DNA of 64,000 nucleotides from an uncultured Pseudomonadota bacterium (GTDB lineage Bacteria; Babelota; Babeliae; Babelales; RVW-14): contig CAZGPI010000002.1 of the NCBI GenBank assembly GCA_964527595.1, forward strand, positions 27,225-91,224. Direction: 5' to 3'. The position numbers and the translations under genes are program-made. This document shows, one piece after another, positions 4,746 through 50,565 of this stretch. Below the pieces are notes generated by a model. That model made no database searches. It saw nothing but the letters and a program-made list of their open reading frames with translations, and was not told the DNA's origin. How positions within the stretch are numbered: the stretch's first letter is position 1; each line of letters opens with the position of its first letter.

Positions 4746-4798
4746 TAGGGAGATGCAGGAGGTTGAGCCTGCCCCGGACTTTGATCCGGGGGCCTGCA
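4746..4798 (+). repeat. GC-rich stem-loop repeat, long variant, copy 3 (gmd-fcl spacer)
   Basis: TAGGGAGA-TGCAGG-AGG...inner hairpin CCCCGGA-CTTTGA-TCCGGGG...G-CCTGCA. The fcl ATG is 13 nt after the outer stem. Confidence 0.8.
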
Positions 4799-4811
4799 TA
4801 TATAAAGAATA

Positions 4812-5891: not shown

Positions 5892-5898
5892 GGTTGTG

Positions 5899-7668
5899 AT
5901 GAGCAGGCCAAGAAAAATAGCAATCATAATTAATCGATATTCCTTTTGGGTTTGCCTTGGAATTGTTTTTTTTAGTGCGATGTCTTTGTTTTTGTTACAT
6001 GAGGATGTTTATATAAAGGTCTTCGATGAATTAAATCCGGATTTAGTTTATAGGCGCATTTTAAGCGTAGATCACAATTATCTAAAGGGGCCGCTTGAGA
6101 TAATTCAGTCCTTTATGGGAGGAATTCCTCGGCATTGTTTTCCAAGCTCTCTAAATTTTTTGGTTTTGTTTTTTATTTTATTTACCCCTATTTACGCATT
6201 TTTAATAAATGTTTTAGTTGTACGTTTATTTGCATATGTTGGGATGTTTCTTTTGCTTAAAAATCATCTTTTCGAGCGAGAAAAAGCGTTAATAAATCCT
6301 TTTCTGATAGCTATGGTTTCTCTTTGTTTTGCGCTTTTGCCATTCCATTTTTGCTTTGGATTAAGTATTGCGGGCCAGCCGCTTTTACTCTATGCCTTTT
6401 TGAATATTTTAAAATATAAGGCATCTATTAAAGATTATCTTATAATCGTACTTTTCCCTTTTTATTCATCTTTTGTATTAGCGGGTATTTTTATATCGAT
6501 TGCGTTAGGGTTTGTTTTTTTATGGAATTGGGTCGAGGAAAAAAAGGCGAATATCAATTTCATGTTAATGCTTATTGCTTTTGGCATGATTTACCTTGGC
6601 GTAGAATATCAGTTAATTTATGCGCATTTTGTAGATAAAACATACATATCGCATCGGGTTGAGTGGAATATTCCTTTGTTTTGGGGAATTGATTTGCATG
6701 GATTTATCGACCGCCTTAAAACCTTTCTTGTCGATGGAGTTCCTTTTTCCCACCATGCTGTTACGCTTCATGCTAAAATTAGTGATTTCATTTTACCCAT
6801 AGCTCTTGTCGTTGGAATCAAGGAGCGTAATTATTTAAAAAGACTTTGTCTTTTTTTAGCGATTATTTTTTTAATAACGCTGTGGCTTTGTTTTTATCAC
6901 TGGTACCCCGTAACCATGATAAGGCAGAAATACTTTTTTTTGCGGGCGTTTCAGTGGGATCGATTTTATTTTTTATTGCCAACCCTATGGTACATTGTCT
7001 TCGCTTTGTCGCTTTGTATGATTTCAAAAATTAAGGACATTGGAAATAACCTTGTTGTTTTATTTCTTTTAATGCAGTTGTTTTATGTTGTAACAAGTAA
7101 CCCTGAACTAAAGCGCAATGTGCGATTTTTGGCAGCAAAATATTTGGGTACTTCTTGTAATGTTAAATACCTATCATTTAAGCAATATTTTTCAGAAAAT
7201 TTGTTTTCGCAGATTGCACTATATATAGATAAACCAAAAAGTTCCTTTAGAGTTATTGCTATAGGTCTTAATCCAAGCATTGCTCAATACAATGGATTTT
7301 ATACTTTGGATGGCTTTATGCCCGATTATCCACTTGCCTATAAGCATGAATTTAAAAAAATAATTGAACGTGAGTTGGACAAAAACGCTGGCAATCGTAA
7401 ATGCTTTGATAATTGGGGTTCGGCATGTAATATTTATGTTGCTGAGGCGGTGATTATCGATGAAAAAAATGAAGTAAAAAAAAATATAATTAAGCAACTT
7501 GATTTAAATATGAATCAATTACGTAAGATGGGTTGCGAGTATATTTTTTCTGAATATGAGATTGAAAATCCCCAGAAAGACTCTTTAAGTTTGCTTAAGG
7601 TATTCAAAAATGAAAATTCCCCTTGGGAGATTTTTTTATATCAGATTAAAAAAAAAGAAAAAGTGTAA
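5899..7668 (+). CDS. Polytopic membrane protein of unknown function inside the glycan operon (possibly DUF6044-like)
   Basis: At least 10 hydrophobic segments followed by a soluble C-terminal domain, with no catalytic motif I can name. ATG at 5899; the ORF track begins at GTG 5896. Confidence 0.5.
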   Translation: MSRPRKIAIIINRYSFWVCLGIVFFSAMSLFLLHEDVYIKVFDELNPDLVYRRILSVDHNYLKGPLEIIQSFMGGIPRHCFPSSLNFLVLFFILFTPIYAFLINVLVVRLFAYVGMFLLLKNHLFEREKALINPFLIAMVSLCFALLPFHFCFGLSIAGQPLLLYAFLNILKYKASIKDYLIIVLFPFYSSFVLAGIFISIALGFVFLWNWVEEKKANINFMLMLIAFGMIYLGVEYQLIYAHFVDKTYISHRVEWNIPLFWGIDLHGFIDRLKTFLVDGVPFSHHAVTLHAKISDFILPIALVVGIKERNYLKRLCLFLAIIFLITLWLCFYHWYPVTMIRQKYFFLRAFQWDRFYFLLPTLWYIVFALSLCMISKIKDIGNNLVVLFLLMQLFYVVTSNPELKRNVRFLAAKYLGTSCNVKYLSFKQYFSENLFSQIALYIDKPKSSFRVIAIGLNPSIAQYNGFYTLDGFMPDYPLAYKHEFKKIIERELDKNAGNRKCFDNWGSACNIYVAEAVIIDEKNEVKKNIIKQLDLNMNQLRKMGCEYIFSEYEIENPQKDSLSLLKVFKNENSPWEIFLYQIKKKEKV

Positions 7669-7689
7669 AGGATTAGCGTGGATAATCGG

Positions 7690-8823
7690 ATGATTCCCGT
7701 TTACCAGCCATGGTTGTGTGGTAATGAAAAAAAATATGTTATGGCTTGCTTGGATTCAAATTGGATTTCATCAAGGGGGTTTTTTGTTGAAGAATTTGAA
7801 AAGCAATTTGCTGCTTATACTGGTGTGAAGCACGCTTCGGCCGTTGCTAATGGTACAGTTGCATTGCATTTAGCGATGTTAGCCCTAGGAATTAAAGATG
7901 GTGATGAGGTTATTGTTCCAACCTTGACCTATATTGCCTCGGTTAATGCTATTGCTTATGCGAGAGCAACGCCAGTCTTTGTTGATTCACTTAAAGAGAC
8001 ATGGCAAATGGATCCAGCTGATATTGAAAAAAAAATTACCGCCAAAACTAAGGCTATAATGGTGGTTCATTTATATGGACATCCTTGTGATATGGATGCG
8101 ATTATGGCAATTGCAAAAAAGCATAACCTTTATGTTATCGAGGATTGTGCCGAGGCGACCGGAAGTTATTATAATGGAAAACATGTTGGGACGTTTGGTG
8201 ACATAGCAACATTTAGTTTTTACGGGAACAAAACGATTACTACCGGGGAGGGTGGGATGGTTGTTACCAATGATGAAAAAATACATAATCATGTTCTTCA
8301 TTACAAAGGTCAGGGATTAGCGAAGGGGCGAGAATATTGGCATGATGTTGTTGGATACAATTACAGAATGACTAATATTTGTGCAGCAATTGGACTTGCT
8401 CAACTGGAGCAAATTGAGTTTTTTTTATCCAAAAAAAAAGAGCTTGCCAAGAAATATAAAGAAAAATTAGATCATTTGCCATTGGCATTTCATGATCCGG
8501 TTGGCCCAATTGAGCATTCTTATTGGATGATATCAATTCTTACCGAGCGAGCTGATGATTGTGAGCCATTAAGAGAGTTTTTAAAAAAACGCGGCATAGA
8601 GTCGCGGCCATTTTTTAGACCAGCACATAAAATGCCTATGTATGAAGAATGTGGTGGCAATTTCCCTGTCGCGGAGAGGTTAAGTTCTTGCGGCATAAAT
8701 TTGCCAAGTTGGCCGGGATTGACCGTTACTGATCTGGATGTTATTTGTGCTGATATTCTGCAGTTTTATAGTAGATGTAATACAGTGGCCCAAAGGGGTT
8801 GTTGCACTGATGTAAAAACATGA
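7690..8823 (+). CDS. per: DegT/DnrJ/EryC1-family PLP sugar aminotransferase, GDP-perosamine synthase-like
   Basis: MIPVYQPWLCGNEKKYV...DSNWISS..., ANGTVALHLA, VIVPTLTYIASVNAI, FSFYGNKTITTGEGGMV (PLP lysine region) and YNYRMTNICAAIGLAQLEQ closely track the Per/RfbE proteins I recall. The gmd context agrees. Confidence 0.8.
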   Translation: MIPVYQPWLCGNEKKYVMACLDSNWISSRGFFVEEFEKQFAAYTGVKHASAVANGTVALHLAMLALGIKDGDEVIVPTLTYIASVNAIAYARATPVFVDSLKETWQMDPADIEKKITAKTKAIMVVHLYGHPCDMDAIMAIAKKHNLYVIEDCAEATGSYYNGKHVGTFGDIATFSFYGNKTITTGEGGMVVTNDEKIHNHVLHYKGQGLAKGREYWHDVVGYNYRMTNICAAIGLAQLEQIEFFLSKKKELAKKYKEKLDHLPLAFHDPVGPIEHSYWMISILTERADDCEPLREFLKKRGIESRPFFRPAHKMPMYEECGGNFPVAERLSSCGINLPSWPGLTVTDLDVICADILQFYSRCNTVAQRGCCTDVKT

Positions 8824-9473
8824 AAAAAATTCTGGTTATTGGGGCCGGTGGGCATGCACGAGTTATTATTGATGCTATTGAAATGGAAGGCAACCATACG
8901 GTTATTGGTCTTATAGATAATAATTTAGAGCCAGGGACTTTTTTTGCCGGATACTCCATTATTGGCGGAGACTGCTCTTTGGATAAAGTAACTGATGTTG
9001 ATGGCGTTATTGTAGCAATTGGTGATAATTGGCGACGTCAGCAACTCGTCAATTATGTAAAAAGCAAATTACCTTTATTACCATTCATTTCGGTGATTCA
9101 TCCAAATGCATTGGTTGCTCGCGATGTGTTGGTTGGCGATGGAACTGTAATCTTAGCCGGTGTTGTAATTAATTCAGGAACTCGTATTGGGGAGCATTGC
9201 ATTATTAATACAAGGGCTTCTGTTGATCACGATAATCATTTTGAAGATTTTGTAAGTATTGCGCCGGGCGTTACTTTGGGTGGTCGCGTAGTTATCAAAA
9301 AGGGGGCTGCAATTTGTCTTGGAGCCAACGTAGTTCATAACATTAAAATTGGGGAAGATTCCGTGGTTGGCGCTGGGGCTCTTGTCCTTGATGATATAGA
9401 ACCACGTGTTGTTGTGGTTGGTTTACCCGCTCGTAAATTACGAAACAGATTGCCTAATGAACAGTATCTTTGA
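8820..9473 (+). CDS. Left-handed beta-helix sugar N-acetyltransferase (NeuD/PglD/PerB-like)
   Basis: N-terminal Rossmann-like KILVIGAGGHARVIIDAIE, then hexapeptide repeats (IGEHCIINTRASV, IAPGVTLGGRVVI, IGEDSVVGAGALV). ATGA overlap with the per stop codon. Confidence 0.8.
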   Translation: MKKILVIGAGGHARVIIDAIEMEGNHTVIGLIDNNLEPGTFFAGYSIIGGDCSLDKVTDVDGVIVAIGDNWRRQQLVNYVKSKLPLLPFISVIHPNALVARDVLVGDGTVILAGVVINSGTRIGEHCIINTRASVDHDNHFEDFVSIAPGVTLGGRVVIKKGAAICLGANVVHNIKIGEDSVVGAGALVLDDIEPRVVVVGLPARKLRNRLPNEQYL

Positions 9474-9495
9474 TTTTTACTGGGGTATCTAAATT

Positions 9496-10719
9496 ATGAT
9501 AACGACAAAAAAAAGAATTGCGATTAACGCTGCTGGATTTAGCGGGTGGGGCGGAGGTATTGATTTTGTAAGAATATTGCTTAATGCATTAGCCTCCATT
9601 CCTAGCGAAACTTTTGAATATTTTATTTTTATTCAGGTTGATTCTCCTGTTTCTACTCATTATTGTTGTAAGATAGGTAAAATAATAAAAACAATTCTAA
9701 ACGTTTTGCCAGCGAAAAAACAAGAAAATGTGAATCGTCACGTTGATTTATTTTTATCAGCTTTTGAAAATATAGATGGTAATTTTAATATTATTTTTTA
9801 TCACGAGCATGAGTTAGAATATTTTTTAAAAAAATTAAACATTGATCTCTATTTACCTATTCCTCCATCCAGAAATCGGTCTTTTTTGCCTATAAAGCAA
9901 ATAGGATATCTTTACGATTTTCAGCACGAATATTATCCACAGTTTTTTTCGGCAAACGAAGTTAAAAAGCGACGGGAATGTTTTGAATTTATACTAAAAA
10001 GCTTTGATGTTATCTTAGTTAACGCGCGCGCGGTTGCTGATGATATTAAGAAGTTTTATCCTTTATGTACAAAAACGATTGTTGTTTTGCCTTTTGCGGC
10101 CGCTCCTGTTGCGCTCTGGTTTGAATCATATGATGTTAGTGAATTAAGACAAAAATATAAGTTACCACAAACTTATTTTATGATATCAAATCAATTTTGG
10201 CAGCATAAGTCGCATATTACTGCTTTCCAGGCATTAAAAATGCTTGATCGAGATGATGTTCATATTGTTTGTACCGGAAATACCAGCGATTATAGGGCTC
10301 CCGATTATTTTGGTCAATTGTCTGATGAAATTAAGCGTCTAAACTTGGGAAAGAGAATTCATTTTTTAGGGCACATCTCTAAGATTGAGCAAATAAATAT
10401 CATGAAAAATGCATTGGCTGTTTTACAACCAACTCTTTTTGAGGGAGGGCCTGGCGGCGGTAGTGTTTATGATGCTGTTGCGCTTGGCGTTCCTTCAATC
10501 GTTTCAAATATTGCCGTTAATCGGGAAATAGATGATCATACCGTTATTTTTTTTAACGTGGGTGATGCCAGTGATATGGCGGTTAAGATGGATCAAATTT
10601 TGAATGGAAATTACTTAAGGATAGCCGGTCAAGAAGCCGCGGCTAATGGCTTACGCAGGACAAAAAGCCTAAATGATGTATTGGTTAATGCTATAAATAT
10701 GGCGTTACGAGAAAAGTGA
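9496..10719 (+). CDS. GT-B fold glycosyltransferase (GT4/GT1-like)
   Basis: C-terminal LQPTLFEGGPGGGSVYDAVALGVPSIVSN matches the E-x7-E region of GT4 enzymes. Located in the glycan operon. Confidence 0.7.
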   Translation: MITTKKRIAINAAGFSGWGGGIDFVRILLNALASIPSETFEYFIFIQVDSPVSTHYCCKIGKIIKTILNVLPAKKQENVNRHVDLFLSAFENIDGNFNIIFYHEHELEYFLKKLNIDLYLPIPPSRNRSFLPIKQIGYLYDFQHEYYPQFFSANEVKKRRECFEFILKSFDVILVNARAVADDIKKFYPLCTKTIVVLPFAAAPVALWFESYDVSELRQKYKLPQTYFMISNQFWQHKSHITAFQALKMLDRDDVHIVCTGNTSDYRAPDYFGQLSDEIKRLNLGKRIHFLGHISKIEQINIMKNALAVLQPTLFEGGPGGGSVYDAVALGVPSIVSNIAVNREIDDHTVIFFNVGDASDMAVKMDQILNGNYLRIAGQEAAANGLRRTKSLNDVLVNAINMALREK

Positions 10720-10733
10720 GAGGAAGCCTTTGT

Positions 10734-11666
10734 ATGCAAACGCTAGAATTGTCGGTTGTTTGCGGGTCGTATAATCGAAACAATTTTTTTAAATTGACCA
10801 TTGATAGTATACGTAATGAGCTGGGTGGTATTGCACATGAGATTATTGTGGTTGATGGGGGATCTGATGATGGAACCCTTGAGTGGCTTGTTCAACAAAA
10901 AGATATCATAACAATTGTTCAACATAATCGTGGCATATGGAATAATAAACCTATAGAGCGGCGTTCGTGGGGCTATTTCATGAATCTTGGGTTTAAAATA
11001 GCTCAAGGTAAGTATGTGTGCATGTTGAGTGATGATTGTTTGGTTATTCCTGGTGCTATAATTAACGGAATTAAACATTTTGAAGAATCGTTGGCGCAGG
11101 GGAAATGTGTTGGCGCCATGGCATTTTATTGGCGCGATTGGTCATCAGAAGATATAAAATATCATGTAGGTTGCACGTTGGGCAGCAAGATGTATGTGAA
11201 CCATGGCATATTTCTTAATGAAGCTTTAGGGGCCGTTGACTATTGTGATGAAGAGACTTTTTTCTTTTACAATGGCGACGGCGATCTTTGTCTTAAAATG
11301 TGGCAGGCCGGATATGAGTGTATTGATGCTCCTGATTCTTATATCGAACATTATCCTCATGCAAATTTGGATATTCGCAAAACAAATTATGTGCGCTTTA
11401 AACAAGATTTAAAGAACTATCTCAAAAAATGGGAGGGGATATTCTATGATTCGCGTGTTCATGATGTTGGAAAGACGATAGAAAAGACCTATGAAGATCC
11501 ATATAAAACTGGTGAGCAATTTAAGTTTTTACATGAAAAAATTGTTCAAGAAAATCCCAAAATCATAAAGCCGATTTCAGGTTTATCTAAACTTAAGCAG
11601 CAATTTCGTTGGAAATGGCAGGCTGGAGTTCGTAAAATTCGCGCTTATATTACTTCGAAACAATAA
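10734..11666 (+). CDS. GT2 family glycosyltransferase (soluble)
   Basis: LSVVCGSYNR, VVDGGSDDGT and MLSDDC (DxD-like) motifs. ATG 10734 has GAGAGGAAG upstream; the ORF-track start is GTG 10716. Confidence 0.7.
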   Translation: MQTLELSVVCGSYNRNNFFKLTIDSIRNELGGIAHEIIVVDGGSDDGTLEWLVQQKDIITIVQHNRGIWNNKPIERRSWGYFMNLGFKIAQGKYVCMLSDDCLVIPGAIINGIKHFEESLAQGKCVGAMAFYWRDWSSEDIKYHVGCTLGSKMYVNHGIFLNEALGAVDYCDEETFFFYNGDGDLCLKMWQAGYECIDAPDSYIEHYPHANLDIRKTNYVRFKQDLKNYLKKWEGIFYDSRVHDVGKTIEKTYEDPYKTGEQFKFLHEKIVQENPKIIKPISGLSKLKQQFRWKWQAGVRKIRAYITSKQ

Positions 11667-11697
11667 CCATTTTTTTACCCTCAAGCAAACGGTATTT

Positions 11698-13464
11698 TCA
11701 TTCGTGAGCAACAAACTGTTGCTTTTCATAATCCAAGGTAATTACTAAGGGTTTTTGTTTAAGATGTTTTTGATCAAAGGTAAGGGTTAGGTCGGTGACA
11801 ATACCTAAAACACTCTGATGAACAGTTTTCGCACCGAGAGATAGATAATTATCAGATAGCGAAAAGTTTATTTTTTGTGGATTAGTTGATGTTAAGCGAA
11901 CGCTTGTTGGTGTATTGGTTATAGTAAAGTAATTTTTTGTATAGTAGGGTGCGCAGCGCATATACCAGCCAGCATGTTCTAAGACATTTGAATTATTCTG
12001 GGTGAGCATAGTTGATGGATCATAATAAACAGGATTTGTTGGAGGAGTTAAAAATAACCAGGCAGCTTGTTCGATTCCGGTACCAAATCCGTCGAGTGGA
12101 AACGCAAGAAAACATAAAGGGCGTGTACCTGAGGTGATTCGCTGGTCATTGGCGAGAGCCAAAAAGGCCTTCTTCATCGTAAAAAGTTTTGTTTCGCGGG
12201 TGCGTAAGTTTGTGTAGGTAAAGAAGGCGCATAGGCCAATAAGGGCAGTACATACAATAGTAATTATTACGTTTATGTATTTGCGGATAGGGATAGGGCG
12301 TTTCCCCCTGAAAAATGAATATATGCTTGTACTTAAAACTGCGAACAAGACAAAAAGAAATGGAGAGGCTTCGTGAAAATACCGTGGGCTATAGGCGCCA
12401 AAAAGTGATGGCCAGAGCATGAGTAGATAGCTAGCGCCGAGGAATAAAAGTAGGAATTTATGTTTATTGCGCCAAAAAAGTATTGCAATAACGAGTGTGG
12501 CAATAAGTAATAAGCTAAGGCGCAGACATTTATGTCCATAAGGGAGCCATGAGAGTGAGAGTGAATCGTAGATACAAACAAGGACTTCGTTAAAACGTGA
12601 AGTTATTTTTGAAAAAATAGTGAAGGCTGAGGATATAGTAAAATTATAGAGCAGGCCGCTCCAGCCGTCGCCCAGGTGGCTATTGCCGGCAGGCCCTCCT
12701 GCACCTCCCTGGAAAAGTTTATGAAACGGATAAAGCCATATGCGAATTGCAAGATATCCGAGTGCTGCTAAACCGTGGGCAACTGGTGCCCATGATATTT
12801 TTTTCTGATACAACCAGCAGCCGCCAAAAAGTATTGCAGGAAATACTATTGCTGTTTCACGGGTAAATAGAGCAATCGTGAAAAACAGTGTCGAAAAAAG
12901 TAAGTAAATGTATTGGCGTCGATCTAGAAAATAGTTGAGCATGATTATGGTAAGCATAAGCAACAAGACATTCAGATAATATTGAAAATTTGCTGGTGCA
13001 CCAAAGCGAAAACCAATTTGTGGGTGCAGGGCAAAAAGAAGCGCAAAAAAAAGTGCAGACGGCCAACCAGAAAACCATGTAAGGATATTGAAAAGAATGG
13101 TTGTATTGAGTGCGTGCAAAAAAACGCTTACCAAATAATAAGCGTAAGCATTAAGGCCGAAAAGCCAATAAGCACAAGCAAAATAAGCGCAATGAATTGG
13201 GCGAAAATAAACACTTAAGAAGTTTAACTTATGAATAGTTGCTGCGCCATACGGTGTATAAAATTGGTGGTGCGATGGGTAAAAGTATTTGTTAACGTTG
13301 CCTTCGATAAAATGGCTCCAAAGCGTTTGCCAGGATTGCATTGTTTTGCCCAGAGCAATGCATGAAAAATCATCACCGTTAAACCACCAGCTTGAGAAAG
13401 GGAGGCCTAAAAAGCAAAAAACAAAGAAAAAAAGCGCAAACGAAATGATAACTTTTTTATTCAT
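11698..13464 (-). CDS. GT-C-like polytopic membrane glycosyltransferase, family A paralog 1 (PMT/TMTC-like F-x-x-DD-[FW]-x-x-I loop motif)
   Basis: At least 10 TM segments. The first loop has WWFNGDDFSCIAL. Paralogous to 13467..14933 and 36169..37824, sharing the LGLPF..W.F..DD start and the SPRY/SSRY region. Contains an in-frame long-form repeat (QGGAGGPAGNSHLGDGWSGL). Confidence 0.6.
   Translation of the reverse strand: MNKKVIISFALFFFVFCFLGLPFSSWWFNGDDFSCIALGKTMQSWQTLWSHFIEGNVNKYFYPSHHQFYTPYGAATIHKLNFLSVYFRPIHCAYFACAYWLFGLNAYAYYLVSVFLHALNTTILFNILTWFSGWPSALFFALLFALHPQIGFRFGAPANFQYYLNVLLLMLTIIMLNYFLDRRQYIYLLFSTLFFTIALFTRETAIVFPAILFGGCWLYQKKISWAPVAHGLAALGYLAIRIWLYPFHKLFQGGAGGPAGNSHLGDGWSGLLYNFTISSAFTIFSKITSRFNEVLVCIYDSLSLSWLPYGHKCLRLSLLLIATLVIAILFWRNKHKFLLLFLGASYLLMLWPSLFGAYSPRYFHEASPFLFVLFAVLSTSIYSFFRGKRPIPIRKYINVIITIVCTALIGLCAFFTYTNLRTRETKLFTMKKAFLALANDQRITSGTRPLCFLAFPLDGFGTGIEQAAWLFLTPPTNPVYYDPSTMLTQNNSNVLEHAGWYMRCAPYYTKNYFTITNTPTSVRLTSTNPQKINFSLSDNYLSLGAKTVHQSVLGIVTDLTLTFDQKHLKQKPLVITLDYEKQQFVAHE
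12651..12712 (-). repeat. GC-rich stem-loop repeat, long form, copy 4 (in-frame inside GT-C-like gene)
   Basis: The reverse complement reads CCAGGGAGGTGCAGGAGGGCCTGCCGGCAATAGCCACCTGGGCGACGGCTGGAGCGGCCTGC. It has 3 differences from copy 6 over about 58 nt. Confidence 0.9.
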
Positions 13465-13466
13465 GG

Positions 13467-14933
13467 TTATTTGGTGTTACTTAAAATATGAAACTGTTGT
13501 TTTTTATTGTCCCAGGCAATGAATAATGGATTGAATTTTTGATACTTTGCTTCAAGAGGTTCTTGGGCGATATTAAAAACAGGATGACTGCTATCTCCTC
13601 GCAATAGCCAAATTGCTTGTGCGCAGGCACCAAAAAGATGCGGTTCTTGAGGAAGATTAATAAAACAAATAGCACGATTTGTGGTGCGGCTATCTTTGGC
13701 GAGTGAGGTGAATGCTTGGGTGACGGGGTGATATAATTGTTCACGCCTTTTTAGGTCATGAAATAAAAATATACCATTTACTATTGTAGCGGTAATGATA
13801 GCGACAAGCAGGAGTTTCTTGGTAATGGTTTTGAGCTTTTGGATTGGCAAAAGAACGATTACAAGCATTATGAAAAGGGGAATCGCTATGTAATAATAGC
13901 GGGGTTGGTTATGCATTAGCAATGCCGGCCAGCCAAAGAGTGGAATGCTGAATGCTAAAAACAGAGCAACCATTTTTTTATTTGTTTTAGTAAAAAACCA
14001 TAGCAGCAGAAGACAAATGCTAAAAATTAAAAATCCTTTGAACCAAGGGGTATTTTTTGGCAAAGCGGTTAACCCAAAAACATCAGAGATGAAGGTTATG
14101 AAATCAAAAGCGCGGCTTAACATGCGCGTTTTGAAAGATAGCCATGTTGGTTCAAAGGTGAGGGTTGCGGTATTTGAGGTTAAAGGGAAAAAGTGTAGCC
14201 GAGCAATGAAATAAAAAAAGGTAATCGCAAAAAATGGAAGTGATACGAGTATCGCTCGTTGTAGGCAATTCAGCAAAGAGAGTGAACTTTTGAGGATTTC
14301 TTTTTCATAAAGTGGTATGGCAAAAAGAAGCCACAGAGGTAAAAAGAAGGTTTGCTCATGCAAAAAAATGTTTGTACAAAAAAGGGCGCAGGCAAAAAGA
14401 TAAGCCCATTTTTTTTTGTGATCTAGATATGATTTAAGTAAAAGAATAATGCAAAGTAATATGAAAAGCTCGATTTGATATGTTTGGGCACTTATCCACC
14501 CAAGCCAGGTCCATAAACTTGGATGAAATCCAAAAAAAAGTGCTGCAAAAAAGGCAATTGGTATGCTGGTAAATAGCGAATATAGATTAAAAATAAGGAT
14601 TGCAGAGAGCGCATGAATAGCTATTGTTATCAAAAAATAGCCATAAGGATGTGCGGCGAAGAATATATATTGAGGGATGAGATAAACTAATGACATTGGG
14701 CGATAGAGGCCACAAAAAAAAGCTGTTTTTGTGGCCTCTGCGTTAGATGGCCAATAAAAAGCATCAAGGCTTTGTCCATCGGTGAAAAAAGTAATAACAT
14801 CTTGCCATGTTGTTATGACACTATGAAAAATATTTCCCCAATCATCAGATCTGAATCCCCATTTTGTGAATGGAATACCGAGTATGCAGAAAATAAGAAG
14901 AAAAAGGATGATTGATAGATACCGTTTTTTCAT
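13467..14933 (-). CDS. GT-C-like polytopic membrane glycosyltransferase, family A paralog 2
   Basis: LGIPFTKWGFRSDDWGNIF first-loop motif and many TM segments. Tandem with paralog 1. Confidence 0.6.
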   Translation of the reverse strand: MKKRYLSIILFLLIFCILGIPFTKWGFRSDDWGNIFHSVITTWQDVITFFTDGQSLDAFYWPSNAEATKTAFFCGLYRPMSLVYLIPQYIFFAAHPYGYFLITIAIHALSAILIFNLYSLFTSIPIAFFAALFFGFHPSLWTWLGWISAQTYQIELFILLCIILLLKSYLDHKKKWAYLFACALFCTNIFLHEQTFFLPLWLLFAIPLYEKEILKSSLSLLNCLQRAILVSLPFFAITFFYFIARLHFFPLTSNTATLTFEPTWLSFKTRMLSRAFDFITFISDVFGLTALPKNTPWFKGFLIFSICLLLLWFFTKTNKKMVALFLAFSIPLFGWPALLMHNQPRYYYIAIPLFIMLVIVLLPIQKLKTITKKLLLVAIITATIVNGIFLFHDLKRREQLYHPVTQAFTSLAKDSRTTNRAICFINLPQEPHLFGACAQAIWLLRGDSSHPVFNIAQEPLEAKYQKFNPLFIAWDNKKQQFHILSNTK

Positions 14934-15922
14934 AGACAGGCCGTTTCCAGCCTGCGCCCTATCGTGGCTACGGCGGACAAGCCCTTCTGTGCAGGCTGTC
15001 CATTAAAACTAAGTTCCATGATCGTTTGTGATATTTGTTCAACAGTTAATCCAGCCATTGAGAGAAGGTCTTTACGTGTTCCCGTTGTGTGGAAGTAAAA
15101 ATCATTTATGCCAAACATTTTAAAAATAATATGATGATCGATTTGTTGACTTATGATTGATGCCACCGCCTCGCCAAGCCCGCCAATAACACTATGTTCT
15201 TCGATGGTAAATAGTGCTTTTAGTGTGCCACTTTTATTAATGAAATAATTGGCATCAAGTGGTTTAATAGTATGAACGCTTGCAAGGCCGATAGAAATTC
15301 CTTGTTGATTTAAATAGCTACAAACTAAGAATGCAAGGTCGAGCGCATTACTTGAGGCAAGAATGAGCTGATTTTCATTTGGTATTATGTCTAAAATTTT
15401 ACCCAGTGTTACGGGTTCTTTTTCGTTATATTGGACGAGTTCTTCATTATTTGAAAGACGCAGATATGCCGGGCCTTGATGATTTACAAATTGGGGCATA
15501 AGCTGTGCCGCTTCATATTTGCTTCCTGGTGCAATAACGGTCATTTCTGGCAAGGCGCGCATAATAGCTACATCTTCAACTGCGTGGTGAGATAATCCAT
15601 ATTGGGCATAACTGAATCCGCCGCCAACGCCAACTAATTTAATGGGTAGGTTTTGATAGCAAATATCAATTCGAATTTGTTCAAAGCAGCGCATGGTGAT
15701 AAAAGGGATGGTTGAATAAGCAAACACTTTCTTACCCGTTATAGCGAGGCCTGCGGCGAGGCCAATCATGTTTTGTTCAGCAATGCCGGCATTGATAAAT
15801 CGTGTTGGAAATTTTTCTTTAAATTCTTCGACGACAGAGAATCCGACATCACCAACAACTAAATAAATAGTTTCGTCTTGTTCGGCCGCTTGTGTGAGAT
15901 ATTTAATAAACGTAGTACGCAT
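14930..15922 (-). CDS. Transketolase-family TPP enzyme, C-terminal (pyrimidine-binding) subunit
   Basis: FINAGIAEQNMIGLAAGLA and SHHAVEDVAIMRALP are typical of the split transketolase / DXS-like C-terminal half. The last ~25 aa (NGQPAQKGLSAVATIGRRLETACL) are encoded by a repeat copy. Confidence 0.85.
   Translation of the reverse strand: MRTTFIKYLTQAAEQDETIYLVVGDVGFSVVEEFKEKFPTRFINAGIAEQNMIGLAAGLAITGKKVFAYSTIPFITMRCFEQIRIDICYQNLPIKLVGVGGGFSYAQYGLSHHAVEDVAIMRALPEMTVIAPGSKYEAAQLMPQFVNHQGPAYLRLSNNEELVQYNEKEPVTLGKILDIIPNENQLILASSNALDLAFLVCSYLNQQGISIGLASVHTIKPLDANYFINKSGTLKALFTIEEHSVIGGLGEAVASIISQQIDHHIIFKMFGINDFYFHTTGTRKDLLSMAGLTVEQISQTIMELSFNGQPAQKGLSAVATIGRRLETACL
14935..15000 (-). repeat. GC-rich stem-loop repeat, diverged long form, copy 5 (3-prime tail of the transketolase C-subunit gene)
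   Basis: The reverse complement reads GACAGCCTGCACAGAAGGGCTTGTCCGCCGTAGCCACGATAGGGCGCAGGCTGGAAACGGCCTGTC. It aligns with the long-form core (AGGGCTTG.CCG.C.TAGCCAC...GGGCG.A.GGCTGGAAACGGCCTG). Confidence 0.7.
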
Positions 15923-16794
15923 TATTGCTCCAATTCTTTTTTGGCTTGAACGTACAATTCAGGATTTAATGAACGATAATGCCATTCGACTTTATTTTCG
16001 GTAAAAGAAAGCCCTTTTCCCTTTATGGTATGGGCGAGAATGACTAATGGCTTTTGACTTTTTTCACGCTGATTAACAGCATCTATAATTTGGCAATAAT
16101 CATGTCCATCGATTTCAATTGTTGAGCAACCAAAGGCGTTAAACATCGTTGAAAGGTTTCCTGTCATTATGTCATCGGTCTTATCGATTGCTTGTAACTT
16201 ATTATAATCAACAATAATAGTAAGATTATTAAGATGATAGCGGCTTGCAACCATAAGAGCTTCCCATATGGCGCCTTCCTGACATTCACCGTCGCCAACA
16301 ATGACATAAACATGATTAGATTTATGGTCGTTTTTTAGCGCAAGTGCGCAGCCAACACCCATCGACAATCCGTGCCCAAGAGAGCCAGTACTTGCCTCAA
16401 TGCCTGGAAATGATCCCTTGGTTGGTTGTCCGCCCAATTTGCTGCCTTTTTTGTTATACGATAAGGCCAACTCTTTTGACATGCAACCAGCGGTCATGAG
16501 TGTAGCGTAAAGGGCTGAAACTGCATGCCCTTTGCTGAGGATAACGTAATCACGATCGACATTCTGGCTTTTTATATGTTTGACATTAATTATTTGATGG
16601 TATAAAACGGTTAAAATTTCGACGATCGAAAATGCCGATGCCAAATGCGAACATTGCGCCGATGTGAGCATCTCAATGATTAAAAGCCTGGTTTCTTTAG
16701 CATATTGAGAGAGATGATTAAGGCATTGCGGATTGATTTTGTTGGGCGTTAATGATTGAATCATTAATGATTTCTCCTTTATGATAAAATTCAA
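15922..16794 (-). CDS. Transketolase-family TPP enzyme, N-terminal (TPP-binding) subunit
   Basis: SKGHAVSALYA, GSLGHGLSMGVG and GDGECQEGAIWEA...NNLTIIVDYN (the GDG-x(25-30)-N TPP motif). The start overlaps the upstream SDR gene. Confidence 0.85.
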   Translation of the reverse strand: MNFIIKEKSLMIQSLTPNKINPQCLNHLSQYAKETRLLIIEMLTSAQCSHLASAFSIVEILTVLYHQIINVKHIKSQNVDRDYVILSKGHAVSALYATLMTAGCMSKELALSYNKKGSKLGGQPTKGSFPGIEASTGSLGHGLSMGVGCALALKNDHKSNHVYVIVGDGECQEGAIWEALMVASRYHLNNLTIIVDYNKLQAIDKTDDIMTGNLSTMFNAFGCSTIEIDGHDYCQIIDAVNQREKSQKPLVILAHTIKGKGLSFTENKVEWHYRSLNPELYVQAKKELEQ

Positions 16795-17713
16795 GATGAT
16801 TTTTAAACCAGGTCAGAGATTTTTTAAGCCCCTTGGCTAGATTATAATGAGGGTGCCAATTAAGAACTTGTTGAGCAAGTGCATTGTCCGCTTTCCATTG
16901 CTTTGGTTCCCATGGGCGTGTTTCTGATGCGTTCCATTGAACAATGATTTTTTTGTCGCTCATCGATTGGGCGGTATTGATGACATCTTGGATAGATGAC
17001 TGAATTCCTGTCCCTGCGTTAAATACAAAATGGGTTCGTGGAAGTTGCTTGGTTATTGCAATATACATATCAACCATATCTTCTATATAGATAAAGTCTC
17101 TGACATAAGAAGGTGAAGAAAGTTGGATTGGTTTTTCTGCAATTGCATTAACAAGAACCGTTGGAATAAGTCGTGTTGGTGCTTCATAATCGCCATAAAC
17201 CGAAAATGGGCGTACGGTATAGATTGGTAATTTATTAGATACTGCCTCTTTAAGGCAGAATTGTGTTGCGGCCGCTTTGGCAACACCATAGTCACTTACC
17301 GGTTCCAAGATGAGGTCTTCTTTCATAGGGCAACTTTTCATGCCATATTCTGATGAGCTTCCGGTATTGATGAAACATTCAAAGCCAACTTCTTTGCAGA
17401 CATTTACGAGGTTTTTTGTACTGTCAAAATTAACGTAATAAATTGAATCTTGGTCATCTTGTTGAGGCATGCCGCCATAAGATGCGAGGTGGAAAATCAA
17501 TTCAGGCTTGATTGTTTTGACAAGTGTATTAATTTTTTCAAAATTGCTGATGTCTATTTCATGTATGGTTATTTGGCTAAGGATGTTGGTTAATCGCCAG
17601 AGCGGAGAATTTTTTTCAATTACGACATGAATATGATATCCGGATGTAAGTAATTTTCTGATCAAGTTGGCGCCAATAAAGCCGGCGCCGCCGGTAACAA
17701 GACATATTTTCAT
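16718..17713 (-). CDS. NAD-dependent sugar epimerase/reductase (extended SDR)
   Basis: MKICLVTGGAGFIGANL Rossmann start and YGVAKAA (YxxxK). Sits between the CDP-hexose genes and the split transketolase. Confidence 0.8.
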   Translation of the reverse strand: MKICLVTGGAGFIGANLIRKLLTSGYHIHVVIEKNSPLWRLTNILSQITIHEIDISNFEKINTLVKTIKPELIFHLASYGGMPQQDDQDSIYYVNFDSTKNLVNVCKEVGFECFINTGSSSEYGMKSCPMKEDLILEPVSDYGVAKAAATQFCLKEAVSNKLPIYTVRPFSVYGDYEAPTRLIPTVLVNAIAEKPIQLSSPSYVRDFIYIEDMVDMYIAITKQLPRTHFVFNAGTGIQSSIQDVINTAQSMSDKKIIVQWNASETRPWEPKQWKADNALAQQVLNWHPHYNLAKGLKKSLTWFKNHLEFYHKGEIINDSIINAQQNQSAMP

Positions 17714-18741
17714 AGAGATCCTTCGTTATGGAAAATTGTCGATGCTGGTAAAATTGTGGTTATGGTGGCAGCTTCATAAAAAGATGATTGAGGGATAGCT
17801 TTTTGAGCGCTGCTTTGTTGCATGATTTCACGAATTACGTAAGGTGGTCTGCCTTTTACTTCTTCAAAAATTTTGATGAGGTATTCGCCAAGTGTTGCAA
17901 GTGCTAGCAGTTGAATGGTACCGAAAATAAACATGGTCATGAGTAAGGTCGAAAATCCTTTAGGGGCGCCATATTTAAAGTGCCAATAGAGAAATGTTCC
18001 TGCTGCACCGACGGTAACAAATACGGCGGCCATAGCCAGCCGAGATATATACACAAGGGGCTTATAGGAGAAATTTACGATGGCTTTTTTTGCCCACATA
18101 AAGTTTGCCATGAAACTATTGCTCGATTTTCCGGCCGCGCGTTCTTCTCTTGTGTATTCAATTCCCGTCTGTTTAAATCCTGCCCAGGTGCGTAGACCAC
18201 GAATATAAAGATCTTTTTCTGGTAAATGTTTGAGCACATTAACTACCTTTTTATCAAGCAAGCTAAAGTCACCAGAATCAAGTGGAATGTCGAGATAAGA
18301 AAGTTGTTTGAAAACGCGGTAGAAGCACTTATAGCCTATTCTTCGCAAAAAACCATTATCTTTACGCTTTTTTGCAATTCCATAAAGAACGTCAAAGCCA
18401 GCTTCCCATTGAGCGATAAATTGTGGAATTATTTCTGGTGGGTCTTGAAGCGCACCCGACATAATCAGAACTCCGTCACTTTGCGCAAATCGAAATCCTG
18501 CAAGAATGCTTGGTTGATTGGAGCCAAAATTGCGTGACATGAAAATGGCTTTAACGTGAGCATCGCTGGCGATTGTTTCTTGGAGTATGTTATATGAATC
18601 ATCGGTGCTCGCGTTATCGATAAAGACGAGTTCGTAGTCATAAGCAGGAAGTGTGTGCATGACTAATGTAACGCGGTGATGAAGATTTTTTATGTTCTTT
18701 TCTTGATTATAACAAGTTGCAATAATTGATATTTTTTTCAC
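17710..18741 (-). CDS. GT2 polyprenyl-phosphate glycosyltransferase (Dpm1/GtrB/ArnC-like), second copy
   Basis: ISIIATCYNQEKNI, IDNASTDDS and the SGALQDP region, plus C-terminal TM helices. I prefer GTG 18741 as the start. The ORF-track start at 18846 reads through a repeat and overlaps rfbG by about 95 nt. Confidence 0.75.
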   Translation of the reverse strand: MKKISIIATCYNQEKNIKNLHHRVTLVMHTLPAYDYELVFIDNASTDDSYNILQETIASDAHVKAIFMSRNFGSNQPSILAGFRFAQSDGVLIMSGALQDPPEIIPQFIAQWEAGFDVLYGIAKKRKDNGFLRRIGYKCFYRVFKQLSYLDIPLDSGDFSLLDKKVVNVLKHLPEKDLYIRGLRTWAGFKQTGIEYTREERAAGKSSNSFMANFMWAKKAIVNFSYKPLVYISRLAMAAVFVTVGAAGTFLYWHFKYGAPKGFSTLLMTMFIFGTIQLLALATLGEYLIKIFEEVKGRPPYVIREIMQQSSAQKAIPQSSFYEAATITTILPASTIFHNEGSL

Positions 18742-18751
18742 AAAGCGGTCC

Positions 18752-19834
18752 TTATAGGGAGGTGCAGGAGGGCTTGCCGGCCATAGCCACCTGGGCGACG
18801 GCTGGAACGGCCTGCGGTAGATTATTGATTTTATTTTCTTGAGCAAAATAGTTTTTATACCAAGCTACTGTTTCTTCAAGCCCTTTGCGAACGCCGTATT
18901 TTGCATGCCATCCAAGAACGGTATGTGCTTTTTTTGAGCAAAGATGTTGGGCTGGAATTTCATTGCAGGCCATGTTTTTGATTATTGGGGTAAGGTGGTT
19001 AGCGTTCATGAGATCCAAAATTTCATGCACCATTTCAACAACGGTGAATGGGTGGTCGGTACTGAAGTTGAAACATTGGCCGACTATTAACGGATTTTCC
19101 ATTGCTTGGGCAAGGGTAAGGTAAGCGTCAACCACGTCTTTTACATAAATGTAATCGCGAACAAATTGGCCATTTGATCTAATTACAGGGGCTTGGTTAT
19201 TAAGAATAGCTTTGATGGTTCCAGGTATTATGCGATTAAGGTGAAAATCACCGCCACCAAAAAAATTTCCACATCGTGTTACGCAAACCGGAAGTTTAAA
19301 CGTATGGAAATACGATTGAGCTATCAGGTCGGTGCAGCTTTTTGAAACATCATAAGGGTGTTGGCCTTGCAGCGGAGCATCTTCGGTATAGGGTAATTTT
19401 TCTTGTGCTCCATAGGCTTTATCGCTTGAAGCAACAACGATGCGTTTGACCCATGGGCTTAAGCGGCAAGCTTCCAAAAGGTTCCATGTTCCTTCGATAT
19501 TTGACCTGAATGTTGAGATCGGTGAGCGATTTGCATAACCGACAATTGCCTGGGCGCCTAAGTGGAAAACTGTTTCAATATCACTTTCATTCAGAACGCG
19601 AGTGAGTAGGTTTTGATCAAGAAGGTCGCCGATAATGACGGATGTTTTTTTATCCAACTGTTGCTGAAAAAATACTGAATGTGAAATGAGATCACGTATT
19701 AAAACAAAAACGTTGGCTTCTTGCTCAATAAGCTCTTGAACAAGCCAGGGGCCTAGTAATCCAGTTGCTCCGGTTACTAAAACATTTCTGTTTTTCCAGT
19801 ATTTTTTTTCATTTGTATAATTTTCCACGAGCAA
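18752..19834 (-). CDS. rfbG: CDP-glucose 4,6-dehydratase
   Basis: WKNRNVLVTGATGLLGPWL, ASSDKAYG and HPYDVSKSCTDL (YxxxK). Sits directly downstream of the cytidylyltransferase. The C-terminal tail is encoded by a long-form repeat. Confidence 0.85.
   Translation of the reverse strand: MLVENYTNEKKYWKNRNVLVTGATGLLGPWLVQELIEQEANVFVLIRDLISHSVFFQQQLDKKTSVIIGDLLDQNLLTRVLNESDIETVFHLGAQAIVGYANRSPISTFRSNIEGTWNLLEACRLSPWVKRIVVASSDKAYGAQEKLPYTEDAPLQGQHPYDVSKSCTDLIAQSYFHTFKLPVCVTRCGNFFGGGDFHLNRIIPGTIKAILNNQAPVIRSNGQFVRDYIYVKDVVDAYLTLAQAMENPLIVGQCFNFSTDHPFTVVEMVHEILDLMNANHLTPIIKNMACNEIPAQHLCSKKAHTVLGWHAKYGVRKGLEETVAWYKNYFAQENKINNLPQAVPAVAQVAMAGKPSCTSL
18755..18817 (+). repeat. GC-rich stem-loop repeat, long form, copy 6 (rfbG / GT2 junction)
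   Basis: TAGGGAGGTGCAGGAGGGCTTGCCGGCCATAGCCACCTGGGCGACGGCTGGAACGGCCTGCGG. This equals the short form with about 33 nt inserted between AGGG and AACGG. Confidence 0.9.
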
Positions 19835-22927: not shown

Positions 22928-24340
22928 CTAAAAGCGCTTAACTTCCTCAAGGTCATCAAAGTGGTGTTTTTCACCTTTGATAAGATAATAGTTTTCGTGA
23001 CCCTTGCCCAAAAGCGCAATAATCGAATGCGGTTGAGCATTTTGTGTCGCAAGGGTTATCGCTTTTTTGCGGTCAAGTTCAACAATAACAGAAGTCATTT
23101 TTTCTTTTGGAATGCCGGCAACAATTTCATTGGCAATTGCTTGACGATCTTCGTCGCGCGGATTGTCGTCGGTAACAATAATAAGATCAGCATAGTCTGC
23201 CGCAAGTTTGCCCATTACCGGGCGCTTGGTGGTGTCTCTATTACCGCCGCAACCAAAAATCACAATAAGATGCGATGTTAAAGGGCGTAATGTTTTGAGC
23301 ACTTCGTCAAATGCTCCTGGCTTATGAGCAAAATCGACAAATGCCTTGGCGCCATTTTTAAGGGTGTGCATTTGTAGGCGTCCTGGAACTCCAGCAAATG
23401 TTGCAAGTGCTTGAGTAATTATATTTGAAGTTACGCCGAGCTCTGAACAAATCAATTTGGCCATACAAACATTGTAATTATTGTATGCTCCAACGAGCGC
23501 CGGGCATAAGGGAGGTGCAGGAGGGAACGGCCTGCAAGCTTCTTCTAAATAAAAGATATGATGCTGTGTTTGCGATTCGCTTGTTTCTTGTTGCTCAAAG
23601 CCGAACGCAATAACTTTTTGCTTTAATCCATTTTCATCAAAATACTCAACCGCTTTTTTGCCCCATGGATTATCAATGTTTATAACGGCAATGCCATTTT
23701 GTTTTAATTGCTTGAATAGCGCAGCTTTGGTTTGAAAATAGTGCTCCATGCTTGGATGAAAATCCATATGTTCTGGGCTAAGATTGGTGAATCCAACAGC
23801 ATCAAATTCAATGCCGTGGATCCGTGAAAGTGCGATAGAATGTGAGGATATTTCCATGATAACGTAATCGATTTTCTCTTTTACGCACTCGGCTAAAAAC
23901 ATTTGAATATAGTCGGCCGCGGGGGATGTTAAGGTGCTTTCTTCTTCTTTGTCGCCAATTTTGTTTTTAATAGAACCAATGAGCGCTGTTTTATACCCGG
24001 CCTGGTTTAGCAGATGGTCAACAAGATAGGTTGTTGTGGTTTTGCCAGCGGTGCCGGTAATTCCAATAAATTTGAGTTTTTGTGCGGGATTATTTAAAGC
24101 TTGAGCCGCATAAGCGGCAAGTGCTTTGCGTGTATCATCGACAAAAATGATTTGAATGTGTGCAGGGATGTCTTTAGGGATGTATGATTTGTCTACAATA
24201 ATCGTTGTCGCACCGCGGTTAATGGCTTTTGGGATGTAAGTAGCTCCATCTTCTTTATGGCCTTTTATTGCAACGAACGTTGACCCCGGTCCGACGTGGT
24301 TGGTGTTACAAGTTACAGGATAAATAACAGGAATAAACAT
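22928..24340 (-). CDS. murE: UDP-N-acetylmuramoyl-L-alanyl-D-glutamate--2,6-diaminopimelate ligase
   Basis: GITGTAGKTTT P-loop, EISSHS, the TNLSPEHMDFH region and the DDNPR motif (VTDDNPRDED), which is typical of the DAP-adding MurE. Carries an in-frame repeat-derived insert (ACRPFPPAPPLCP). Confidence 0.9.
   Translation of the reverse strand: MFIPVIYPVTCNTNHVGPGSTFVAIKGHKEDGATYIPKAINRGATTIIVDKSYIPKDIPAHIQIIFVDDTRKALAAYAAQALNNPAQKLKFIGITGTAGKTTTTYLVDHLLNQAGYKTALIGSIKNKIGDKEEESTLTSPAADYIQMFLAECVKEKIDYVIMEISSHSIALSRIHGIEFDAVGFTNLSPEHMDFHPSMEHYFQTKAALFKQLKQNGIAVINIDNPWGKKAVEYFDENGLKQKVIAFGFEQQETSESQTQHHIFYLEEACRPFPPAPPLCPALVGAYNNYNVCMAKLICSELGVTSNIITQALATFAGVPGRLQMHTLKNGAKAFVDFAHKPGAFDEVLKTLRPLTSHLIVIFGCGGNRDTTKRPVMGKLAADYADLIIVTDDNPRDEDRQAIANEIVAGIPKEKMTSVIVELDRKKAITLATQNAQPHSIIALLGKGHENYYLIKGEKHHFDDLEEVKRF
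23507..23536 (+). repeat. GC-rich stem-loop repeat, short form, copy 7 (antisense, in-frame inside murE)
   Basis: TAAGGGAGG-TGCAGG-AGGGAACGG-CCTGCA, read on the opposite strand as CRPFPPAPPL. Confidence 0.9.
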
Positions 24341-30265: not shown

Positions 30266-30279
30266 TCGTAGGCGTTTTG

Positions 30280-50538: not shown

Positions 50539-50565
50539 GGGAGGTGCAGGAGGGAACGGCCTGCA
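50536..50565 (+). repeat. GC-rich stem-loop repeat, short form, copy 8 (secA-murI spacer)
   Basis: TAAGGGAGG-TGCAGG-AGGGAACGG-CCTGCA. Its TAA is the secA stop codon. The murI ATG is 12 nt after the stem. Confidence 0.9.

Follow-up and report, generated by a model that had tools for sequence, protein, structure and literature searches.

Nested GC-rich hairpin repeats, probably mobile, in the AT-rich genome of a Dependentiae-like bacterium

The 64,000-nt stretch of DNA analyzed here, hereafter the window (positions 27,225 to 91,224 of contig CAZGPI010000002.1), carries dispersed GC-rich hairpins of two kinds, unit A (the short form) and unit B. These are two discrete hairpin units with conserved unpaired nucleotides and freely covarying stems, they are gained or lost precisely at orthologous sites, and unit B lies repeatedly at one position in the loop of unit A, which makes a composite long form. 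We think it probable, although well short of certain, that they constitute a modular family of miniature mobile repeats in an AT-rich, Dependentiae-like intracellular bacterium. The window has a GC content of about 39% and a GC skew that is positive throughout. Relatives were found by scanning one genome per species with the short-form pattern, and the main ones are two metagenome-assembled genomes (MAGs), CAZLQB01 (LQB) and CAZBUZ01 (BUZ), with many copies of unit A each. The two genomes share synteny with the window, their nucleotide identity to it being about 72-81% and BUZ being slightly farther from it than LQB, and orthologous sites were compared by MAFFT and by a flank-anchored comparison.

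Two hairpin units, one nested in the loop of the other

Unit A has a length of 27 nt and the structure GGGAGG-N-[5-bp stem]-AGGGAACGG-[stem']-N, in which the 9-nt loop AGGGAACGG is invariant and the G-rich head GGGAGGN is single-stranded. The six short copies in the window are all on the plus strand and start at 1716, 4409, 23510, 50539, 53636 (28 nt in this one) and 58844. The stem pairs seen are GCAGG/CCTGC, GCGGG/CCCGC, GTGGG/CCCAC, CCCGG/CCGGG and CTCGG/CCGAG. A comparison was made of 19 distinct versions, of which 12 belong to this bacterium or its relatives and 7 to a Firmicutes repeat described below. The search pattern had fixed the head GGGAGG and the loop and had left the stem free; 88.6% of the cells were paired and there were 23 two-sided changes, and 0 of 500 shuffles were as high. 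Pairing dropped to 28-50% in slid registers, and the stem is taken to be 5 bp because the outermost pair is not maintained. When the window was searched with the loop alone, allowing up to 2 mismatches, every copy that was recovered also had the head.

The long form at 18757-18816 (+) is 60 nt long and reads GGGAGGTGCAGGAGGG[CTTGCCGGCCATAGCCACCTGGGCGACGGCTGG]AACGGCCTGCG. It is antisense to an epimerase/dehydratase gene at 18752-19834 (-), to which it supplies the last ~21 codons (…PQAVPAVAQVAMAGKPSCTSL*), adjoining the stop codon. Its inner module, the 33-nt subtype CTTGCCGGCCATAGCCACCTGGGCGACGGCTGG at 18773-18805 (+), sits between AGGG and AACGG of the host loop and folds as a hairpin of its own (CCGGCC/GGCUGG and GCC/GGC). 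The second 60-nt long form, at 12650-12709 (-), is sense and in frame in the gene 11698-13464 (-), where it encodes FQGGAGGPAGNSHLGDGWSGLL at residues ~251-272, and its 33-nt module at 12661-12693 (-) has 2 differences from that at 18773-18805. The original prediction was that two nearly identical long copies lie 6 kb apart, and indeed only 3 of the first 59 positions differ (18, 26 and 51), together with the unpaired 60th base; no inverted repeat in the window is longer than the one they form (71 nt, 89%). It was also predicted that the long form is the short element with about 33 nt nested in its loop, and the sequences bear this out with the extents given above. Because the 16 nt 5' of the block and the 10 nt 3' of it match the short consensus, the long form equals the short form plus 33 nt between AGGG and AACGG. 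The two forms are not unrelated families that share only GGGAGG, as the 3' half AACGGCCTGC is also common to both.

A third window copy at 14935-15000 (-), which had been called a diverged long form, is one, with a degenerate head and outer stem and an inner unit of 36 nt. It makes up the C-terminal tail of a transketolase-C-like gene (14930-15922, minus strand), adjoining the stop of this gene and the start of the gene 13467-14933 (-), and its inner module at 14946-14981 (-) is the 36-nt subtype CTTGTCCGCCGTAGCCACGATAGGGCGCAGGCTGGA, as in loci L026 and L043. The module is at the identical loop position in all 5 long forms (three in the window, L026 and L043), and the combined length of A and B is 60-63 nt. 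The claim that the cores are exchangeable stands only for the 33/36-nt module with its two subtypes, and it does not stand for the copy at 4748-4798 (+), referred to as copy 3. Copy 3 is intergenic between gmd and fcl and has the head GGGAGA, the arms TGCAGG/CCTGCA and an inner hairpin CCCCGGA…TCCGGGG, and it is without the AACGG half-loop. No second copy of its inner hairpin was found in the window or in the related DNA examined, and being a singleton it cannot be called a module. In thermodynamic folding the long forms do not outdo shuffles (z≈0), since good folding is common to all GC-rich 60-mers, and therefore covariation was relied on instead. A G-quadruplex reading of GGGAGG…GGAGGG was rejected, as related hairpin variants are without four G-runs.

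That the likeness between copies is a chance or low-complexity artefact of GC-rich patches in an AT-rich genome is a reading to which we give next to no credence. The units are small, and single exact matches to a 19-base pattern do arise by chance in GC-rich genomes, but the head GGGAGGTGCAGGAGG matched 10 times in the window compared to 0.57 expected in shuffles, a second pattern matched 7 times compared to 0.31, and the 19-nt inner core was found at 2 window sites only, the 18757 and 12650 copies, compared to 0.00. These shuffle controls, the dozens of copies in the two related MAGs and the occurrence of copies at orthologous positions already refute chance resemblance.

Unit B is 33 or 36 nt long and has the structure CCTG-stem-GTAGCCAC-N-GGGCGAA-stem', with a 6-bp stem that covaries and with GTAGCCAC and GGGCGAA as the conserved parts of its loop. 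Whether the inner module also occurs alone had been left as a question by the original prediction, and a scan with an inner-only pattern found it without GGGAGG arms in 11 AT-rich metagenome contigs (31-46% GC), with the standalone consensus (G)CCTG-TCCGCC/CCAGCC-(G/A)TAGCCAC-N2-4-GGGCGA(A/C)-GGCTGG-A. The conserved span of these standalone copies is the inserted block of the long forms. Two of them adjoin the 3' ends of tRNAs (L081 and L090), others are in the loop of unrelated outer hairpins (L104 and L097) or in multi-module clusters, and the 33-nt subtype is standalone in the unrelated contigs L083 and L094. Compensatory stem variants were found by eye, namely TCATCC/GGATGA (L012) and CCCTAC/GTAGGG with GCCAG/CTGGC (L094 and L093), covariation in unit B being limited by the fixed pattern with which its copies were ascertained. 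The genes of L081 have 61-66% amino-acid identity with those of LQB, and therefore at least part of the distribution of unit B is within the same lineage. A separate observation on this unit is a composite of ~270 nt at L012:3400-3740 (-), matching window 54893-54906 and missing from the window, in which an outer stem ATCCTCGA/TCGAGGAT surrounds a unit-B-like module that is itself interrupted by a second B-like module, whose stem is compensated (TCATCC…GGATGA), and this amounts to triple nesting.

A probable explanation for the long form is that unit B is an independent repeat for which the unit A loop is a further insertion site, the point of entry being in every case between AGGG and AACGG. 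A trans-acting factor would recognize the hairpin by its conserved loop and head and would copy or move the units. Recognition would probably take place on single-stranded DNA with the hairpin loop as the exposed target, and by analogy the factor would resemble HUH/Y1 enzymes of the IS200/IS605-RAYT type, by which REP/REPINs (described below) and IS200/IS605 are mobilized (PMC3116915), or some other hairpin-recognizing enzyme.

Alleles at orthologous sites

At three orthologous sites a long form in one genome faces a short form in another. The long copy at 12650-12709 is short in LQB (L020), that at 18757-18816 is short in BUZ (L006), and a 63-nt long form in LQB (L026) is short in BUZ (L039). 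In all three pairs there is one clean gap of 33 or 36 nt in the loop with flush junctions, and the loop of the short allele is exactly that of the consensus. The nesting thus does not disappear under a proper alignment; in MAFFT alignments of orthologous loci it shows as a single clean 33-nt gap in the loop, with the arms and flanks aligned. The protein that hosts the 12650 copy provides a stepwise series, as 13 more distant homologs (P0131-P0144) are empty at the site, P0130 of LQB has the short form and the window protein (P0004) has the long form. P0130 reads …FQGGAGG-NGLLY… and the window protein reads …FQGGAGG[PAGNSHLGDGWS]GLLY…. The short/long pairs together with this empty/short/long series are an unusually clean natural record of stepwise nesting.

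There is also gain and loss of whole elements. Copy 3 is absent at the orthologous site in L057 and the 53636 copy is absent at that in L012, the elements of L064 and L025 are without a counterpart in the other MAG, and the element of L071 faces a decayed copy in L040. Turnover is thus evident from four orthologous sites that are empty and from one copy that has decayed. A relaxed search for unit B found 3 copies in the window, 2 (and 1 variant) in LQB and 0 in ~80 kb of BUZ, where there are short forms only. That this search found no unit B in BUZ and that BUZ has only short forms favors the short-to-long direction, the numbers being small.

The opposite order, in which the long form is ancestral and the short form arose by precise deletion of the inner hairpin through replication slippage at G/GG microhomology with no nested insertion at all, we consider very unlikely. 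It would account for the boundaries of the inner hairpin, which are …AGG|G and …CTG|G, and at any single site the series empty, long, short takes as many steps as empty, short, long. However, the short form is the large majority and is the sole form in BUZ and in the Firmicutes repeat, and independent copies of the inner unit are found elsewhere. The exact loop AGGGAACGG would have to be regenerated by each of three independent deletions, and two length subtypes (33 and 36 nt) are found at the same loop position.

The two long copies 6 kb apart would be of recent origin in this lineage. On the explanation that we prefer, they would have arisen either by insertion of the 33-nt subtype into two pre-existing short elements or by one insertion that was copied by short-patch conversion. 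The latter route, ectopic gene conversion or template switching between the inverted elements and not two insertions, is possible but on the doubtful side, and it is compatible with the preferred explanation for the first copy. The two copies share the 33-nt length, CCGGC and CACCTGGGCGAC, features that are not in the copy at 14935-15000, L026 or L043, they have only 3 differences in 59 positions and they are close together. What stands against conversion is that the homology arms are only 16 and 10-11 nt, that a free source is plausible since the 33-nt subtype is standalone in L083 and L094, and that the intervening 6 kb is not inverted, L020 and L006 being collinear. The same collinear synteny rules out an inversion of the 6-kb segment between the inverted long copies.

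Coding context and conservation of single copies

The six short copies of the window illustrate the settings in which unit A is found. The element at 1716-1742 (+; stem GTGGG/CCCAC) overlaps the TAG stop of the gene 712-1716, and 9 nt separate its end from the ATG at 1752. That at 4409-4435 (+) is sense and in frame in gmd (gene 3542-4726), where it encodes GRGGRERPA, and its ortholog in L057 is identical. The element at 23510-23536 (+) is antisense and in frame in a murE-like gene (22928-24340, minus strand), encoding ACRPFPPAPP. That at 50539-50565 (+) comes right after the TAA stop of secA and ends 12 nt before the ATG at 50578, and its L012 ortholog is identical. The 28-nt variant at 53636-53663 (+) is intergenic, and the element at 58844-58870 (+; stem GCGGG/CCCGC) lies between two minus-strand genes and is therefore antisense to transcription.

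A census of 41 copies across the window and both MAGs found 15 (37%) inside long open reading frames (ORFs), and three sense and three antisense frames are used. The reason why they are tolerated in coding sequence is that the units inside genes are multiples of 3 nt, their lengths being 27, 33 and 36 nt, and that the 27-mer of unit A as read from the sequence has no stop codon in any of the six frames; the 28-nt variants are found only outside genes or at gene edges. The peptides encoded by the inserts, as read from the reading frames, include GGAGGPAGNSHLGDGWSGL and GRGGRERPA. The latter is an addition of 9 residues to Gmd compared to the E. coli protein (PDB 1DB3), in the context GIVSAINSP[GRGGRERPA]SINNIK. 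In the murE-like gene the antisense unit A at residues ~260-280 replaces ~18 residues (QN..G……) that all close homologs keep, and therefore there was insertion plus deletion in an essential cell-wall gene.

The 12650 copy had been placed in frame in a GT-C-like membrane protein gene. The frame was confirmed, and the GT-C assignment is supported at the level of the fold. The protein had no sequence match in Pfam, NCBIfam or PDB, and its AlphaFold model, with a mean predicted local distance difference test (pLDDT) score of 83.7 and a predicted template modelling (TM) score (pTM) of 0.85, matches only the GT-C glycosyltransferases STT3, PglB, ALG12 and ArnT (Foldseek probability 1.0, TM ~0.45). 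Residues 251-276 are the only segment with pLDDT below 50 and coincide with the stretch that the element encodes. The model thus supports a GT-C-fold membrane protein in which the insert would be the only disordered loop; comparison with a paralog, the 488-aa neighbor, was uninformative at the insertion site. Apart from these inserts, homologs of the host proteins, P0013 (MurE) and P0141/P0142 (GT-C-fold protein), have G/P/A/R-rich extra segments of their own elsewhere (HSPGSSPGQALRP; RGQPGARPEV), and these sequences suggest that similar GC-rich inserts are common across the Dependentiae-like lineage.

With respect to transcription, 29 copies are sense and 10 are antisense. With respect to GC skew or the replication strand there is a weak bias of 27 to 14, though all six short copies of the window are on the plus strand. 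Several intergenic sense copies run from the upstream stop codon (TAA|GGGAGG) to a point 9-12 nt short of the following ATG, and for this subset a role as a hairpin-bridged Shine-Dalgarno (SD) sequence is conceivable.

These observations bear on an alternative explanation, which is that the hairpins are functional motifs of the host under purifying selection and that the long form differs merely by an extension stem that is optional, a feature of many structured RNAs. The function could be that of an intercistronic cassette (stop, SD-like GGGAGG and hairpin up to the next start), of a hairpin that stabilizes or processes mRNA, or of a DNA site for a nucleoid or replication protein. The excess of sense copies and the copies that run from stop codon to ATG speak for it, as do the invariant head and loop with a covarying stem, the presence of the unit A head and loop in a composite repeat of Firmicutes, and the nucleotide-level conservation of copies at orthologous sites, those in coding sequence included. 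We nevertheless hold this explanation to be unlikely, because elements are present, absent or decayed at orthologous sites, because there is no Rfam match even at E≤10, and because a conserved RNA does not usually differ by a 33-nt indel between close orthologs. Furthermore, the coding copies are in six frames and both orientations and the antisense copies are conserved as well as the sense ones (L026/L039 and 18757/L006), and therefore a role at the level of mRNA cannot be general.

The interpretation of the units as mobile repeats has to be weighed against several points. The first is the degree of conservation. Seven orthologous element pairs have 7 mismatches in 189 nt compared to ~43 expected at the identity of the aligned flanks (P≈3e-13), and 4 of the 7 mismatches are two compensatory stem pairs. 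Rare stem types are kept in both genomes (the gmd copy is identical in 27 of 27 nt), which argues against homogenization by a master copy. Simple selfish decay or homogenization does not explain why single copies are conserved, and if a dead insertion were decaying neutrally, a GC-rich 27-mer would not be predicted to persist in a genome of 39% GC. Secondly, direction is not proven site by site, as insertion and precise excision of unit B are equally parsimonious at any one site. Thirdly, the census is biased, the related loci having been fetched with the short-form pattern itself. Finally, no transposase or recombinase was identified by Pfam among 39 ORFs of the window, ~350 kb of related DNA gave no HUH/Y1 match when scanned with a crude HUH…Y motif, and no consistent target-site duplication or target sequence was seen. 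The conservation of copies against an AT mutational bias makes the question whether they are selfish or functional directly testable.

Known repeats, other hairpins and the host

The elements were compared with several kinds of known repeats. The Rickettsia palindromic elements (RPEs) are palindromic repeats in AT-rich obligate intracellular Rickettsia that occur in frame in many unrelated housekeeping genes and between genes and add a tolerated peptide (PMC10969869). The units described here are likewise palindromic, lie in frame in protein genes and between genes, and are found in an intracellular AT-rich host. However, RPEs are ~100-150 bp long and use one reading frame to encode a conserved peptide, whereas the units here are 27, 33 or 36 nt, use six frames, nest one in the other and belong to a host of another phylum; the comparison was made by description. 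Repetitive extragenic palindromic (REP) sequences and the hairpins that they form (REPINs) are imperfect palindromes of only 20-40 nt whose unpaired 5' head is conserved, with many copies which cluster by insertion into or next to one another and for which movement as single-stranded DNA hairpins has been proposed (PMC3116915). Our units resemble them in being short palindromes with a conserved unpaired head, in having many copies and in inserting into one another. REPs, on the other hand, are extragenic with a GTAG/GTGG head, mostly as inverted doublets flanking the gene of a REP-associated tyrosine transposase (RAYT), whereas here 37% of the copies are in genes, the head is GGGAGG in every copy, and the copies are singlets with the only inverted pair 6 kb apart. 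No RAYT-like (Y1/HUH) gene was found in the window ORFs or in the motif scan mentioned above; as these searches were empty, as the head differs from GTAG and as the copies are not extragenic, membership in a REP/RAYT system is not supported.

The GC clusters of yeast mitochondria (e.g. GC42) are GC-rich hairpins of ~30-45 nt in an AT-rich genome that are polymorphic and constrained and merge into composites, and the enzyme involved is unknown (PMC4478555). As with those clusters, GC-rich palindromic units are here dispersed in an AT-rich genome, with presence/absence polymorphism between relatives, with signs of sequence constraint and with composites. Unlike the units here, GC clusters reside in mitochondria, for the most part between genes, and GC42 has conserved stems and variable loops, whereas in our bacterial host the loops and head are invariant and the stems covary. 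As to MITEs (miniature transposable elements with inverted repeats), one might regard the 5-bp stem as terminal inverted repeats, but the head is asymmetric, and neither a consistent flanking direct repeat nor a parent insertion sequence was found; MITEs are also larger, roughly 50-500 bp compared to 27 and 33-36 nt. The small dispersed repeats of cyanobacteria that Elhai et al. described in 2008 are reportedly ~21-27 nt long, were inferred to be mobile from orthologous loci and are nested in other repeats, and we take them as a lead and not as a test; they are from another phylum and have other sequences.

What is already known, then, is the behavior of RPEs and of yeast mitochondrial GC clusters. 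What is new here is the size of 27 and 33-36 nt with the use of six frames, the loop-specific nesting with its empty/short/long series, the phylum, and the nucleotide-level conservation of single copies. If the interpretation as mobile repeats holds, mobile or self-maintaining DNA units as small as 27-36 nt can exist in bacterial genomes, these units nest in one another and remodel proteins with short Gly/Pro/Ala/Arg-rich loops in any frame, and the RPE phenomenon extends at a much smaller size to the Dependentiae/TM6 intracellular bacteria. A bolder reading, which we put forward only tentatively as it may well be wrong, is that this is a hierarchical homing system of the smallest mobile DNA units yet described, in which a 33-36-nt hairpin goes site-specifically into the 9-nt loop of a 27-nt hairpin, both being constrained at the nucleotide level across species and having a head/loop signature in common with composite repeats of Firmicutes. 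If that were true there would be a widespread enzyme or host factor that reads hairpins of the type 'conserved loop plus any stem', and this factor could be repurposed as a programmable hairpin-targeting tool.

The Firmicutes repeat is a multi-hairpin intergenic repeat of ~350 nt in several Oscillospiraceae/Eubacteriales MAGs (L003, L009, L016, L023, L028, L030, L034, L035, L062 and L067; e.g. L003:1950-2300) in which the head and loop are exactly those of unit A and the covarying stems are different ones. It lies between unrelated housekeeping genes in either orientation with the unit-A-type hairpin as its central module, and other copies carry related hairpins in the central slot (GGGGAATCCAAGGGGGAAAGCCTTGG, GGAGATCCAAGAGGGAACGTCTTGG). 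From the sequences, this likeness may reflect one ancient cross-phylum module or a coincidence amplified by copy number. Searches of a wider kind yielded little. At Rfam 15 gathering thresholds the window and 13 related loci gave no relevant match, there being only two tRNAs in the window, and the elements themselves gave nothing at E≤10. Viral contigs gave zero matches with both patterns, and in the full-text literature the motif string matched only unrelated primers and no description of these elements was found.

As for the host, the closest named MurE homologs (47-52% identity) are annotated as Candidatus Babeliales/Dependentiae, and from such homolog annotations we regard it with moderate confidence as Dependentiae-like. 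The gene content of the window is bacterial (secA, murE, lipopolysaccharide genes and TLC transporters). TLC ATP/ADP translocases are a hallmark of energy parasitism, and the two tandem genes for them at 43008-44309 and 44417-45751 (-) support, as far as gene content goes, an obligate intracellular lifestyle. The repeats also have practical consequences, in that they inflate or fuse ORF calls and fragment short-read assemblies. The Logan contig L001, from a short-read assembly of the same organism, corresponds to window 4770-11941 and breaks in copy 3, inside which it starts at …TGCCCCGGAC.

A few other segments of the window were observed. The sequence GAGGGAGGGCCTGGCGGCGGTAGTG at 10437-10467 (+), in a GT1 gene (9496-10719), is like the 5' half of the long form (GGAGGGCCTG.CCG.CGTAG) and could be a decayed long-form remnant or a chance likeness. 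There is a second family of small hairpins, GGGGGATG-CCAAGG-GGGAACT-CCTTGG, with a G-rich head and a GGGAA loop, at window 60036-60062 (+), L049:7092-7110 (-) and L003:4951-4969. The window hairpin matches a hairpin of the Firmicutes repeat, as does that of L049; the former is intergenic between two minus-strand genes, and the L049 copy lies within the beginning of an ORF, at a distance of 25 nt from a copy of unit A. At 55536-55566 (+), in the ORF 54952-57495 for an 847-aa protein beside a NurA-domain gene, there is a GC-rich hairpin CCTTGGTGG-TTCGCCGGCTCG-CCCACCAAGG encoding SLGGSPARPPRT, which is probably an in-frame insert of a different family. Lastly, at 27523-31665 (+) there are three tandem paralogous ORFs of ~460 aa, none of them with a match in Pfam. 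They recur at a period of ~1390-1397 nt (direct-repeat families D2, D11 and D19) and are probably duplicated membrane proteins of a polysaccharide locus.

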